Shown here: positions 1,660 to 7,330 of the stretch, piece after piece | Layout of the letters: each line of letters begins with the position of its first letter | How positions within the stretch are numbered: the stretch's first letter is position 1 | Assembly (NCBI GenBank): GCA_965263035.1 | Contig: OZ253580.1 | Span: 6,112,001 to 6,176,000, forward strand | Reading direction: 5' to 3' | DNA from: Acidobacteriota bacterium | GTDB taxonomy: Bacteria; Acidobacteriota; UBA6911; RPQK01; JAJDTT01 | DNA: 64,000 nucleotides | The notes under the pieces: generated by a model | What the model saw: the letters and a program-made list of their open reading frames with translations, nothing else | The model's database searches: none | What the model was told of the DNA's origin: nothing | Translations under genes and position numbers: made by a program

Positions 1660-1686
1660 GGAGCGGCAACTTTCTTGTCGCCGACC
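1660..1686 (+). repeat. REP-like hairpin (GGAG foot), uninterrupted copy
   Basis: GGAGCGGCAACTTTCTTGTCGCCGACC resembles the two units AGGAGCGGCGACTTCCAGTCGCCGAAC / AGGAGCGGCGGTTTCCAACCGCCGAGC reconstructed at 2870-3562. Confidence 0.6.
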
Positions 1687-2789: not shown

Positions 2790-2885
2790 TCGCCCAAATC
2801 CTTCGCTTATATTCCCCCTCGCACCAGTTTCCCTCTTCATCCGTCGCCTTGTCGCTTCAAGCTCCTCCGGAGTTCGGCGACTGGA

Positions 2886-3527
2886 GTCGCGGTAGGGACG
2901 CCGGTTGCCCAGCGCCCCCCGCGCAGATCCGTGCGTGCCCGTTAAGGCACACGGCTCCTACCTCAGGTAATGACGGCAGGTCGCGACGCCCGCCGTATCC
3001 GACCCCCGCCTGTGTCACGGTAGCCCGGCTCTGAGTCCGGTCCGTACTTTGGTGAGCCGAATTCCCCTTGGTTCCACCCCTTCGCTCCACCGACTCCGCA
3101 GAGAGTTCCCCCTCCTTGTTCGCCCGCTTCATCACTACTATGGGTGAATCCGATTGCTTCCTCTCTCCCCTCATGGGTTACGGCTTTCCCCTTTCCCACA
3201 AGGCCCCGGCTCTCGCCGGGGAGAGAGTAAGCCCTCCCAGGTCCCGACACCAGATGTACGTACGTGCATGGGTTCTTTGACACCGCAGAGCCCGGCTGCC
3301 CCTCACCCTGGCGGTCCAGCCGGTGTTGCCTTCGACCGCGACTACAGCCTCGGCACTTCCGATCAGGGAGCTTTCGATGCTCAATAGCCTGCCCATACGC
3401 ACCGCTACCGACGCTTCGCCGACACCCTCACGGGTGCCCACGCACGGCTCGCGGAGAAACGTGGATGGTTAGTCCTTCGTTTCAGCGGACTTTCACCGCC
3501 TATCTTGTGCCAGTTAGCCTGGCGCAC
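2886..3527 (-). ncRNA. ORF-less group II intron (~642 nt)
   Basis: 5' GUGCG at 3527; domain V GAGCCGUGUGCCUUAACGGGCACGCACGGAUC; domain VI ending CCCUACCGCGAC at 2886; only IEP N/C-terminal scraps remain in domain IV; EBS1/EBS2 match the 5' exon. Confidence 0.9.
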
Positions 3528-3580
3528 AGTCGCCGCTCCTGCTCGGCGGTTGGAAACCGCCGCTTGTCTGTTTAAATGGG

Positions 3581-3742
3581 GCCGTCCGGGTCGCTCATGA
3601 GCGACCCGGACGGCGGTGGCTGGACCGTACCGCCGCGGACTGTTACGAACCGTATGGGAGTGAGGTCGGCCACCGTCTTTCCCGATGTCCTGAATGGATA
3701 CGAGGGCATCAAGGCCCGAATGACAAGCACAGGAGACAGGAA
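3581..3742 (+). ncRNA. Predicted IS110 bridge RNA
   Basis: 34-bp perfect palindrome (3581-3614), then two stem/internal-loop domains holding ACCGCCGC (3629-3636) and GGGAG (3656-3660) target guides, and ATGGATAC (3694-3701) and GACAAG (3722-3727) donor guides. Confidence 0.75.
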
Positions 3743-3744
3743 AG

Positions 3745-4692
3745 ATGAAACAGCATACCGTAGGCATCGACATCTCGAAAGCGCACCTGGACGCGCACCG
3801 GCTGGCCGACGGCCATTCCGCCCAGTTCGACAATGACCCGGCCGGCTTCCGGGCGCTGATTGATTGGATCGGAACTCCGGTCGAGTGCGTCGCGTACGAG
3901 GCCACCGGTCCCTACCACCGGGACCTCGAGGAAGCGCTGTCCAAAGCGAAGCTGCCGCTGGCGAAGGTGAACCCCTGGCAGGCGCGGCGCTTCGCCGAGG
4001 CGACCGGGAGCCGCGCCAAGACCGACGCCGTAGACGCTCGGAAACTGGCCCAGCTGGCCGCCACGCTGGAGCCGCGCCGGACCCAGGTGCCGTCCAAAAC
4101 GCAACGCCGGCTCCAGGATCTGCAGACGTCCCGGGACGCGCTGATGCGCCAGCGCACGGCCGCGCTCAACCGCCGCCGACAGCTCCGCGAACCCCTGCTC
4201 AAACAGCAGAACCAGATCCAGATCAACATGTTCGAGCGCCACCTGCGCGCCATCGACCGCAAAATGCAGCAGCTGATTGCGGCCGACGAGGCGCGGGCCC
4301 GCAAGTTGGAGATCCTCACCTCCATCCCGGGGATCGCGGCCACCACCGCCGCCGGTCTGCTGGCCGAGATGCCCGAGCTGGGCGCCCTCAGCGGCAAGGC
4401 CGCCGCCAGTCTGGCCGGGTTGGCCGCCGTTCCGCGCGAGTCGGGGGCTTGGCAGGGCCGGGCCTTCATCCGGGGCGGACGGGCGCGGGCGCGACGGCTC
4501 CTGTACATGCCGGCGGTGGCCGCCCTGCGTTGGAACCCCGACTTGGCCGAGGTGTACCGGAGGCTGAGCGAGCGCGGCAAGCCCGGCAAGGTGGCCCTCG
4601 TCGCCGTCATGCGCAAGCTTATCGTCCTGGCCAACACCCTCGTCCGGCAGGACCGCACCTGGTTGCCCGTAGCGCCCCGAGCGACCTTCTGA
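3745..4692 (+). CDS. IS110 family DEDD recombinase/transposase
   Basis: GIDISK, YEATG, KTDAVDA, SIPGI, PRESG, AVMRKL motifs. Confidence 0.95.
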   Translation: MKQHTVGIDISKAHLDAHRLADGHSAQFDNDPAGFRALIDWIGTPVECVAYEATGPYHRDLEEALSKAKLPLAKVNPWQARRFAEATGSRAKTDAVDARKLAQLAATLEPRRTQVPSKTQRRLQDLQTSRDALMRQRTAALNRRRQLREPLLKQQNQIQINMFERHLRAIDRKMQQLIAADEARARKLEILTSIPGIAATTAAGLLAEMPELGALSGKAAASLAGLAAVPRESGAWQGRAFIRGGRARARRLLYMPAVAALRWNPDLAEVYRRLSERGKPGKVALVAVMRKLIVLANTLVRQDRTWLPVAPRATF

Positions 4693-5086
4693 GGCCACGG
4701 AGAAACCCCGTGAGGAAAGGGAGCGTGTGGACCCCCTGATGGCCGTCTGTCGAACTTCCGGTCAAGTCTGGCCGGAAGCTTGCTTACGGCCATGAAAGCT
4801 CTTCACGCCCTGGGGAGCGCCGGGTCACCCGAAGGGTCGCAGCGAAGCGGAGGAGCCGGAGGCTTGACCCGACGCTCCCCAGGGCGTATCCGGACCTCCC
4901 GGAGGACTGACGTCGACGATCTCAGGTCCCTCGATCCAGTTATCGGTCCACTCATCGCCCCCTGCACGGCGCCCGGCGGATCCAGCTCGATCTCCGCCTC
5001 ACCTCCGGCGGAAGAACGCTCCTCCTAACCCTGTGCCCTTTGGACCGGACAGATCACGTACTAACGACACGGGATGGAAACACCGA

Positions 5087-7330
5087 TTAGCACCCACCAC
5101 TTGCAACATGGATACTCCTCTCCAGAAACCGGTCGGTGCTGTCGGGATCGATCCGGCGGCAACTCCGGCGCAGGGCGAGAGCCACCACTTCCAGGTCCCG
5201 GCTGCAGGCGGTGTCCCACTTGGAGAGCGCGGCGAACTCGCCGCACAGCAGGGCCAACCGGAGCATATGGCGAAACAGAATCCCCTCCTGCTTGACCAGA
5301 CCGCGGCTGTGGACGAACCGGTTGAAGTTCCCGCCGAGATCCAGGAGGTGCCCGGCGGCCCAGACCGGCCGAACCCTCAACTGGGAGACCTGGGGCAATC
5401 GCCCATTGAAGACGAGCCGCAGCTTGGCGGCCAGAGTCGGACCCGGACCCGCCTGCATGAGTTCCTCCCGCAACCTCGTCTCCGTCCCCCCGGCCGGTCC
5501 CAGCCGCGCCAACTCGGGATTGAGACAGTTCGTCTCCAGCGGTCCGGGGTCCAACCTTCGAGCGTCCGGTACCGGAACGGATCGGGCGACGGCTCCCGAG
5601 AGCTCCAGCACGCTCTCCAGGGCCTGAATTCGCTCGCTCCGGCTGGCCCGGGGGAGCAGATCCCTCAGGAAGTCGCCGTAGAGGGGATTGATGCCGCGAA
5701 AGGCCAGCAGCCGATCCAGCCGCGGCGTGGCCTGGGCCAACACCGGCCGGTAGTCTCCGCGGTCCTCCGGATCCGGAGGCGGCTCCGGGTCCAACGTCAC
5801 ATAACCTCCCAGCCGGAGGGTGAGCAGCATGTCATTCAGGGCTCTCTGGGCCGACTGCACCGCTCGGGCGCTGAGCAACCGCTTCCCGACCATGGCTCGG
5901 ACCTCGCCGACCCGGGGGGAACGTTTCAACAGGTAAGCCAGATACCTCCAAGGCAGGGGGCCCCGGCTGGCCAGGGCCGCCGGCCGCGCGGCGACCAGAC
6001 GGCGAAACTGGGCCTGGTCCCAAGCGGGCCGGTTCTGCCTCCCGGACCTCATCTTCCGGGCCAGGGACTTGCGAGCCTGGCGAAACGCGGACTTGCGGGT
6101 GCGGGCGGGGATCGACTCCAACCGCCGCTTGCGGCGCAGGAGTTTCACCTGTTCCTCCGGCGCCAGGGCCAGGACAAAGCCCCGCCGGTCCCATTGGGGC
6201 CGTCCGGCCCGGCCGAAGATCTGGTGGGCGGTGGTGGCGTCCAGCGCCCGTTTCTGCCGGGGCGGGCCCTTGACCAGGCTCTTCAGCACCACGGACCTGG
6301 CCGGCAGATTGATCCCGGCCGACAGGGTCTCGGTGCAGATGACCACGGGGAGAAGCCGGCGCTGGAACAACTCCTCCACCACGCGCCGGTACTTGGGGAG
6401 GATCCCGGCATGATGAACCCCCACGCCGCGCAGCAGGAGTTGCCGCAGGACGGGTCCGGCTCCGTCGGACAGGTCCAGGTCCCGTACCCGGGCGGCCAGC
6501 GTCCGCTTCCGGCTCCCGTCCACCAGGGGCCGGCCCTTGAGCCGTACCGCCATCGACCAACACTCCCGGCGGTTGAAACAGAACACCAGACAGGGGCTCC
6601 TTCGCCCCTTCTTCCCTCCCCGGACCAGTTCCACCAGCAGCTCTTCCAGCAGCAGGTCGCCGACCCACTGGTACGTCAACGGCACCCGCCGTTCCCTTCC
6701 CTGGAGCAGCTGCATTTGCCGGCCGTGGCTGTTCCGAAGCCAGCGCGTGAAGGACTCGGGACGGCCCACCGTGGCCGAGAGCAGCAGCAGCCTCACGTGC
6801 TTGGGAAGCAGCGAAAGGGACAACTCCCAGACGATGCCGCGTTCCGGGTCCCGGAACGTGTGGAATTCGTCCTTGACCACCACGGCGACGCGATCGAAAT
6901 CGAAGTTGTCGGGTCGCAGCAGGCGATTGAGGAGGATCTCGGCCACCACCACCCGTACCGGCGCGTCAGGGTTGACCTGCCGGTTCCCGGTCACCAGCCC
7001 CACGGTGTCGCCGGGGAATCCCCAGCGTACGGCGGCGGCCTGCATCTCCCGGAATTTCTGCTCGGTCAGCGCGATGAGCGGAGTGGTGTAGTAGGCCGTT
7101 CGGCCGCTGTGGAGAGCCTCGAAGAGGGCCCCTTCGGCGATCAAGGTCTTGCCGGTGCCGGTGGGCGCGGTCACCAGCAGGTCCTCTTCCGAGGCGTACC
7201 AAGCCTCCAGAGCGTCCCTCTGAAAAGGATAGGGTTTGAAAGGAAGAGACTGCAGGTAACGATCCAGCAGCTCTCGCCGCCGGGTCGAGGCTGTTTCGAT
7301 CACTCGCTGGGAGTCAGCCGTGGACCTCAC
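5087..7330 (-). CDS. Ski2/HelY-like DEAD/DEAH-box helicase (DUF3516-like); C-terminal tail replaced by IS110 sequence
   Basis: APTGTGKT, DEFH, LSAT, HHAG, GINLPA, QIFGRAGR. Confidence 0.9.
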   Translation of the reverse strand: MRSTADSQRVIETASTRRRELLDRYLQSLPFKPYPFQRDALEAWYASEEDLLVTAPTGTGKTLIAEGALFEALHSGRTAYYTTPLIALTEQKFREMQAAAVRWGFPGDTVGLVTGNRQVNPDAPVRVVVAEILLNRLLRPDNFDFDRVAVVVKDEFHTFRDPERGIVWELSLSLLPKHVRLLLLSATVGRPESFTRWLRNSHGRQMQLLQGRERRVPLTYQWVGDLLLEELLVELVRGGKKGRRSPCLVFCFNRRECWSMAVRLKGRPLVDGSRKRTLAARVRDLDLSDGAGPVLRQLLLRGVGVHHAGILPKYRRVVEELFQRRLLPVVICTETLSAGINLPARSVVLKSLVKGPPRQKRALDATTAHQIFGRAGRPQWDRRGFVLALAPEEQVKLLRRKRRLESIPARTRKSAFRQARKSLARKMRSGRQNRPAWDQAQFRRLVAARPAALASRGPLPWRYLAYLLKRSPRVGEVRAMVGKRLLSARAVQSAQRALNDMLLTLRLGGYVTLDPEPPPDPEDRGDYRPVLAQATPRLDRLLAFRGINPLYGDFLRDLLPRASRSERIQALESVLELSGAVARSVPVPDARRLDPGPLETNCLNPELARLGPAGGTETRLREELMQAGPGPTLAAKLRLVFNGRLPQVSQLRVRPVWAAGHLLDLGGNFNRFVHSRGLVKQEGILFRHMLRLALLCGEFAALSKWDTACSRDLEVVALALRRSCRRIDPDSTDRFLERSIHVASGGC

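Follow-up and report, generated by a model that had tools for sequence, protein, structure and literature searches.

Two RNA-guided mobile elements of different kinds, an IS110-family insertion sequence and an ORF-less group II intron, in adjacent REP hairpins at the end of a helicase gene

The window analysed here is a stretch of 64,000 nucleotides from an Acidobacteriota bacterium (positions 6,112,001 to 6,176,000 of the forward strand of contig OZ253580.1). Within it, the 3' end of a helicase gene consists of two adjacent 27-bp hairpins of a repetitive extragenic palindrome (REP) family, of which one is interrupted by an IS110-family insertion sequence and the other, at a distance of 35 bases from that element, by a group II intron that lacks an intact open reading frame (ORF). 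Comparison of the sequences makes it highly probable that two unrelated RNA-guided elements landed here independently of each other, each programmed by base-pairing for the conserved 5' half of the REP, namely its GGAG head and first arm. The genome, coded G000, is a complete chromosome in one contig (C1; 6,198,070 bp, 62% G+C). Coordinates are those of the window, unless they are given as genome positions.

The IS110-family element occupies 3563..5116 on the plus strand (1,554 bp) and has a CT core at 3563-3564 and again at 5115-5116, while the intron occupies 2886..3527 on the minus strand (642 nt, 5' GTGCG...GAC 3'; Rfam RF02005, 165.4 bits, E = 9e-49). Both sets of boundaries had been proposed by a first-pass annotation made from the letters of the window, and both coincide with end-to-end BLAST matches to other copies in the genome. 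As presently read, the helicase ORF (5087..7330, minus strand, 747 codons) encodes a Hel308-like DEAD/DEAH helicase with domains PF00270 and PF00271, its matches to Hel308-like NCBIfam models lying well under their cut-offs, and its last 10 codons enter the right end of the IS110 element. On the same strand there follow the first hairpin, REP1, with a spacer (3540..3562), the head of REP1 being split by the IS110 element; the 5' exon of the intron (3528..3539), which is the head and 5' arm of REP2 and comprises intron-binding site 2 (IBS2), one unpaired nucleotide and IBS1; and, beyond the intron, the 3' exon (2857..2885), with the loop and 3' arm of REP2 and then the last codons and the stop (2857-2859) of the reconstructed helicase. 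Excision in silico of 2886-3527 and of 3565-5116, leaving one copy of the core, restores the helicase frame to this stop and gives a tail identical in reading frame to the one reconstructed earlier. The first-pass annotation was also right to assign the intron to the REP2 hairpin, although the actual insertion site is the boundary between 5' arm and loop and not the middle of the apex. The further empty repeat that it placed at 1660 is indeed present (1660..1685, plus strand), downstream of an outer-membrane barrel gene; it belongs to the same family and has a GGAG head, 7-bp arms and a 6-nt loop.

Alleles without the insertions were found in relatives. Two metagenomic sequencing runs of RNA libraries from a single study (X15 and X16) each yielded one contig that lacks exactly both elements: these contigs cover 2763-2885, skip 642 nt, cover 3528-3562, skip 1552 nt and continue to 5600, with few base differences from the window. 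The 1552-nt gap corresponds to 3563-5114, and the two letters that fit on either side of it are the CT core. Because an insertion sequence cannot be spliced out, the contigs must represent an empty DNA allele of a close relative or related strain, and not spliced RNA. In eight genomes of the genus the conserved part of the helicase extends to the same point, after which the number of REPs varies: none in G006 and G007, one in G003 and G008, two in G002 and G005, three in G004 and about four in G001. In the sister species G003 the helicase has at its end just one copy, which is empty, of the REP that in the window holds the intron, and the tail downstream of it is the same. The empty helicase allele that the first-pass annotation had proposed to look for in relatives is thus present in the X15 and X16 contigs, and the intron's REP is empty in G003. 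The helicase tail is a variable, REP-encoded and non-conserved extension, and the insertions alter only that part.

The IS110 element encodes a recombinase of 315 aa (3745..4692, plus strand; PF01548, 81.5 bits; PF02371, 68 bits; NF033542, 208 bits against a cut-off of 140), followed by a long non-coding right end (4693..5116, plus strand). A BLAST search of the whole genome located nine end-to-end copies (96-100% identity), three that are internally deleted, one that is truncated and one right-end fragment. CT stands at both ends in 13 of 13 copies, without target duplication, and ten of the 13 share the same site in the foot of a REP, which in element orientation reads ACCGCCG arm, CT, element, CT, CC of the head; in nine of these ten the whole hairpin lies in the left flank. 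The left end folds as two stem/internal-loop modules (z = -6.1 against 200 shuffles), and contains at 3612..3744 (plus strand) a putative bridge RNA whose architecture is as described in PMC11208160. In its target loop, the 5' side ACCGCCGC (left guide, 3629-3636) equals the left target plus the first core base, and the 3' side ATGGGAG (right guide, 3654-3660) is complementary to the core and right target; in its donor loop, the 5' side ATGGATAC (left guide, 3694-3701) equals the element's right terminus, and the 3' side GACAAG (right guide, 3722-3727) is complementary to its left terminus. These segments, of 8, 7, 8 and 6 nt, occur in the order and in the loops expected of a bridge RNA, and they match the guide polarity reported for the IS621 bridge RNA (PMC11208160). 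An Rfam search of the left-end stretch matched no family.

Guide and target change together, both within and between genomes. The remaining three copies (genome C1 653129, 1125870 and 3695500) sit near the end of another repeat, of about ten copies, at a site reading ACCGACG-CT, and their left target guide carries the matching C-to-A change; a second change lies in the right guide. In genomes G007 and G004 the guide is GTCGCCG, which reads the arm type used by the intron; four of the five copies with that guide are found at GTCGCCG arms and the fifth at a GCCGCCG arm. The claim of the first-pass annotation that the element sits in the GGAG foot of the first REP extends to most of its copies, with covarying guides. 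A segment of about 130 nt in the right end (4770-4899) also stands alone at several other positions, both in this genome and in its relatives, and may be a passenger repeat; three copies of the element lack some 67 nt just downstream of it.

Seven end-to-end copies of the intron (92-100% identity, 642-643 nt) and one 67-nt 5' fragment were found by BLAST across the genome. The termini are GTGCG...GAC in six of the seven, and the seventh begins GTGTG. Every one of the seven directly follows the last base of a REP 5' arm, at the arm/loop boundary; six are in GGAG-headed REPs and the copy with 92% identity is in a GTAG-headed palindrome. From the Rfam alignment, exon-binding site 2 (EBS2, GCTCC; 3367..3371, minus strand) was placed in an internal loop of domain I, where it can pair with the REP head GGAGC, and EBS1 (AGTCGC; 3338..3343, minus strand) in a terminal loop of domain I, where it can pair with the final six nucleotides of the REP's 5' arm. 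Domains V-VI lie at 2886..2959 (minus strand). Pairing of EBS1 and EBS2 with arm and head is found in all seven copies, and the single unpaired base between the two is the IIA/IIB arrangement. In the 92%-identical copy both sites have changed in a compensating manner, CCTAC and GGGTGC standing opposite GTAGG and GTGCCC. The first-pass annotation had aimed a 6-nt EBS2, GCUCCC, at the REP foot; the pairing with the head holds, and the covariation gives it a length of 5 nt.

To extend this comparison, 41 intact and distinct junctions from G000, G002, G004, G005, G006 and G007 were tabulated, a collection that is non-exhaustive and from which three truncated or interrupted rows had been set aside. 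Tallies were made by eye with G-T counted as a pair, and some junctions were compared at their 5' ends only. IBS1 pairs at 6/6 positions in 37 junctions and at 5/6 in four; IBS2 pairs at 5/5 in 21, at 4/5 in 19 and at 3/5 in one. Seven EBS1 types and three EBS2 types occur, each with its own target type. Forty of the 41 targets combine a GGAG- or GTAG-type head with an arm-like 5' exon after it; the remaining one belongs to a sublineage in G004 whose target lacks the REP head-and-arm motif and whose EBS1 and EBS2 have changed to match. All seven sense strands in G000 are leading-strand sequence (with an origin at about 2.86 Mb and a terminus at about 5.86 Mb, as taken from GC skew), but this was rejected as a sign of lagging-template targeting, as matching empty REPs are likewise biased, 120:52 (Fisher p = 0.11). 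The 67-nt fragment, identical and cut at one point in three genomes (genome C1 4424636-4424702; G007 C2 3009691-3009757; G006 C23 189762-189828), is possibly an old shared truncated copy.

The REPs of this family have a GGAG head, G+C-rich arms of 7-8 bp and a loop of 3-6 nt, without a T tract. Counting both strands of the genome, the 5' half occurs 365 times, where about 31 occurrences are expected from base composition; a narrower seed with a fixed G at arm position 4 gave 343 matches, 294 of them with a hairpin of at most one mismatch. Described REP superfamilies have a conserved GTAG or CGTC head tetranucleotide (PMC3733652), whereas the main family here has GGAG; GTAG heads a minor family in the genus. 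As the first-pass annotation had suggested looking for, there is a gene resembling a REP-associated tyrosine transposase (RAYT) that is flanked by these repeats. It encodes a Y1/HUH transposase (genome 2482816-2483502, minus strand; PF01797, 35 bits against a cut-off of 23) and has REPs on both sides in inverted orientation. The first REP downstream of it is occupied by a copy of the intron (2482159-2482801) and the upstream one by a copy of the IS110 element (2483504-2485057). The genomes of the genus have two to five matches each to this protein, some of which are fragments or have internal stops. A second paralogue (genome C1 3477745-3478419) contains an internal TAG and lies between REPs of a second family, whose arms are G-only; intron sublineages in G002 and G005 target that family. 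In other genomes of the genus too, copies of the IS110 element or of the intron have a RAYT gene or fragment a few kb away or less (G007 C2 4662165-4666262; G002 C1 1403999-1406729; G004 C1 782657-786077).

The two elements of the window are not alone at these repeats. A class IIC intron family in G000 is represented by 25 5' ends, 24 of which immediately follow the REP foot, on the other strand and no more than about one base from the IS110 core. To judge by position, the 25 comprise 19 ORF-less copies (631 nt), two of full length (1,849 nt), three that are interrupted and one fragment (examples at genome C1 6059982-6060612, 2455915-2456545 and 529487-531335), and the encoded protein, of 497 aa, scores 451 bits to the GsI-IIC reverse transcriptase. 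With the seven copies of the window type, G000 has about 26 ORF-less introns. A second, unrelated IS110-family element of about 1.75 kb is present in four copies (genome C1 2037970-2039718, 3359524-3361272, 2456655-2458401 and 4847505-4849249), and its left junction directly follows a REP-type hairpin. Further close pairs are seen near 3.067 Mb, where a window-type intron lies about 110 bp from an IIC copy, and near 2.456 Mb, where an IIC copy adjoins the second IS110 element. Since IIC introns and a second IS110 lineage share the REP foot, the stack in the window is one of several. The convergence of two elements on one repeat, which the first-pass annotation called unusual, is accordingly so in part: IS110 insertion into REPs is well known, and the IIC introns and the second IS110 element are at the REP foot as well.

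The intron is a shortened form. A parent form of about 1.9 kb, present in G002, G004, G005 and G007, has an ORF of 519 codons with an RVT_1 domain; no endonuclease domain was detected in this 519-aa protein, and among solved structures it is closest to reverse transcriptases of IIC type (7uim, 169 bits). Of the intron protein's ORF the window intron retains remnants of both ends, some 51 to 56 codons at the start and some 30 at the close. End-to-end alignments of the 642-nt form were obtained in G000, G005, G006 and G007, and the form therefore stems from one deletion. Bacterial ORF-less introns are reported to be rare and to have nearly always a related protein in the same genome (Zimmerly and Semper, PMC4424553), a co-occurrence from which G000 departs. 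The matches to TIGR04416 in G000 were considered as the cognate protein and rejected, as they belong to introns of other Rfam subfamilies.

Two further features of the window lie outside these elements. Between a PIG-L gene and the helicase tail there is a 167-bp repeat with terminal inverted repeats, resembling a MITE (miniature inverted-repeat transposable element), at 2623-2789. It has 184 BLAST matches in the genome, and in metagenomic runs its summed contig depth reached at least 10^4 in three of four and far exceeded that of its flanks in all four. Its terminal motif also begins the repeat of about ten copies that holds three IS110 copies, one exact 17-nt site of which is still empty. 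At 1717-1830, a short ORF start that resembles a HicB/ribbon-helix-helix antitoxin (E ~2e-4) enters the convergent PIG-L deacetylase gene and looks like a remnant.

That both elements share this REP family as their target, as the first-pass annotation maintained, is borne out by guide-target complementarity and covariation for the IS110 element and for the intron alike. The proposed course of events is as follows. The IS110 element would act through a DEDD/serine recombinase and a left-end bridge RNA, whose target loop would read the REP arm and head on either side of CT and whose donor loop would read the element's own joined ends; recombination at CT would place the element inside the GGAG head, without duplication. 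The 642-nt intron would be a deletion derivative of the 1.9-kb IIB-like intron of sister species that has kept the ribozyme, EBS1 and EBS2; reverse splicing would insert it behind the final nucleotide of the REP's 5' arm, and it would depend on a protein supplied in trans. The 5' half of the REP being abundant, conserved and mostly harmless to interrupt, elements with an RNA specificity of a few bases may have drifted onto it, thereafter tracking its variants. We infer in this scheme the expression of the bridge RNA, recombination, reverse splicing or retrohoming, the trans-acting protein, and the service of REPs as numerous harmless landing sites. Insertion of the IS110 element separates IBS2 from IBS1, while insertion of the intron keeps the IS110 site intact.

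Several observations weigh against this interpretation. The X15 and X16 contigs, though they come from RNA libraries, give no support for splicing, and the score for domains V-VI (RF00029, 36.9 bits) is just below the gathering score of 40. A tblastn search of the G000 chromosome with the parent protein did not find the cognate intron protein, the best matches being 31-37% identical and belonging, again, to introns of other Rfam subfamilies; because G000 is without it, the present mobility of the intron there is unexplained. For the IS110 element, the right target guide fits several flanks over the core and 2-3 nt only, and a left end of 182 nt against a right end of 424 nt is unlike typical IS110-group elements, in which, as opposed to the IS1111 group, the left end is the longer one; the guides themselves lie in the left end. 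The RAYT-like protein scores 73.8 bits against NF047646, 'REP-associated tyrosine transposase', under the cut-off of 80.

Alternative explanations differ mainly in how the elements relate to each other and to the hairpin. It is tempting to suggest that they interact, such that IS110 elements and introns hyperparasitise the REP/RAYT system and compete for or disable REPs, with guides that co-evolve with REP subfamilies. The occupation of both RAYT-flanking REPs, one by each element, would fit such an interaction, as would the sharing of the same ~14 nt by four lineages, the way in which guides follow REP arm variants across species, and the RAYT genes or fragments close to IS110 or intron copies in other genomes. 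The two elements also use different arm types in G000, the IS110 element being found in arms that end in GGT or GGC and the intron in arms that end in ACT or GCT. However, REPs flank RAYT genes by definition, so that such occupancy is expected from target density alone; occupancy in G000 is low (about ten of some 100 perfect sites for the IS110 element, and six of some 170 compatible sites for the intron); and the second RAYT paralogue is a pseudogene whose flanks are without such insertions. We regard an interaction of this kind as possible but rather doubtful. The lack of a cognate reverse transcriptase in G000 could instead mean that intron copies spread passively, without retrohoming, through RAYT-mediated or recombinational movement of REP DNA. 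Three copies are at least 99.8% identical, and every copy is embedded in a REP, a class of repeat that is thought to be mobile. Yet the copies are precise units of 642-643 nt, each lodged in its own REP variant, and the outer flanks are unrelated; EBS1 and EBS2 fit each site, compensatory changes included; and the empty allele differs by exactly the intron, all of which makes passive spread very improbable.

Nor do we give much credence to the view that the hairpins are transcription terminators and the intron a class IIC intron which recognises hairpin structure and not sequence, a combination that seems very unlikely. Introns of class IIC are described as inserting after terminators or other inverted repeats (PMC1702495; PMC4424553), and the best solved relatives of the parent protein are, as noted, of IIC type. 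But the intron sits inside the hairpin and not after it, and has a covarying EBS2; the G004 sublineage is matched in EBS1 and EBS2 to a target without the REP motif; and the hairpins are without a T tract, number some 365 copies and are accompanied by a RAYT. The true IIC family of G000, moreover, differs in its behaviour, with insertions that follow the foot and lie on the other strand. Independent landing of two base-pair-programmed elements on the REP 5' half thus accounts best for the locus. A broader proposal, which seems possible but less likely than not, is that in this sponge-associated genus at least four RNA-guided lineages, two of IS110 type and the IIB-like and IIC introns, have one REP/RAYT family as their common landing pad, their guides diversifying in step with REP subfamilies, and that the IIB-like intron is a MITE-like mini-intron which has recently spread without a cognate reverse transcriptase. 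Its mobilisation would then have relied on a heterologous intron protein, such as the one made by the IIC family, or on a protein encoded off the chromosome.

Discussion of REPs as targets usually concerns DNA transposons. To judge from complementarity, the same dozen nucleotides would here be read both by a bridge RNA and by a ribozyme, two chemically different guides, and natural 'reprogramming' is visible in both guide systems across sister species. The locus and its relatives thus offer a natural comparison of two RNA-guided insertion systems faced with one targeting problem, with guide/target pairs ready to hand. They also provide an example, rare among bacteria, of ORF-less introns that are multicopy yet have no protein of their own, which bears on the loss of intron autonomy, and indicate that REPs, including those that flank a RAYT, can be hubs of nested parasitism.

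Insertion of IS110-family elements into REPs is established for IS621 in E. coli and for ISPpu9 and ISPpu10 in P. putida (PMC11208160; PMC1525189; PMC12288879). The element of the window shares with these the DEDD and serine recombinase domains, the CT core, the absence of target duplication and the REP as natural target, as well as a left-end RNA, putative here, with target and donor loops of the same polarity. It differs in using another REP family, with a GGAG head, in its longer right end with a passenger repeat, and in natural guide variants that, within the genome and between sister species, follow REP arm variants or another repeat. The insertion of IS110 elements at REPs and of IIC introns after inverted repeats is already known, while a search of open-access literature gave no description of a IIB-type intron lineage that is directed to REPs through covariation of EBS1 and EBS2. 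With class IIC introns (B.h.I1, the E.r. intron and the attC introns) the window intron has in common an endonuclease-less protein and a palindromic repeat as landing site, and the second intron family of G000 behaves exactly as they do; the window intron differs in lying inside the hairpin, with EBS1 and EBS2 pairing to head and 5' arm, which requires a melted hairpin. Like ORF-less introns that are mobilised in trans, such as those of cyanobacteria, it is multicopy and derives by deletion, with the ribozyme and the beginning of the ORF retained; but where such introns are reported to have, nearly always, a related protein in the genome (PMC4424553), a search of the complete G000 chromosome did not reveal the cognate protein. 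IIB introns in integron attC arrays, of which a few copies, partly truncated, have been described (PMC7923331), are likewise IIB-type introns at palindromic recombination sites; those sites are attC and not REP, and the abstract of that study mentions no guide-target covariation. A further parallel is P. putida KT2440, in which IS110-family elements and a group II intron are also found at the REPs of one genome, ISPpu9 and ISPpu10 in 7/7 copies each and the intron in 2/9 (Tobes and Pareja 2006, PMC1525189). The intron association is weak in that case, and no pairing rule is given for it, whereas here all seven intron copies are at REPs, with guides that covary with their targets.

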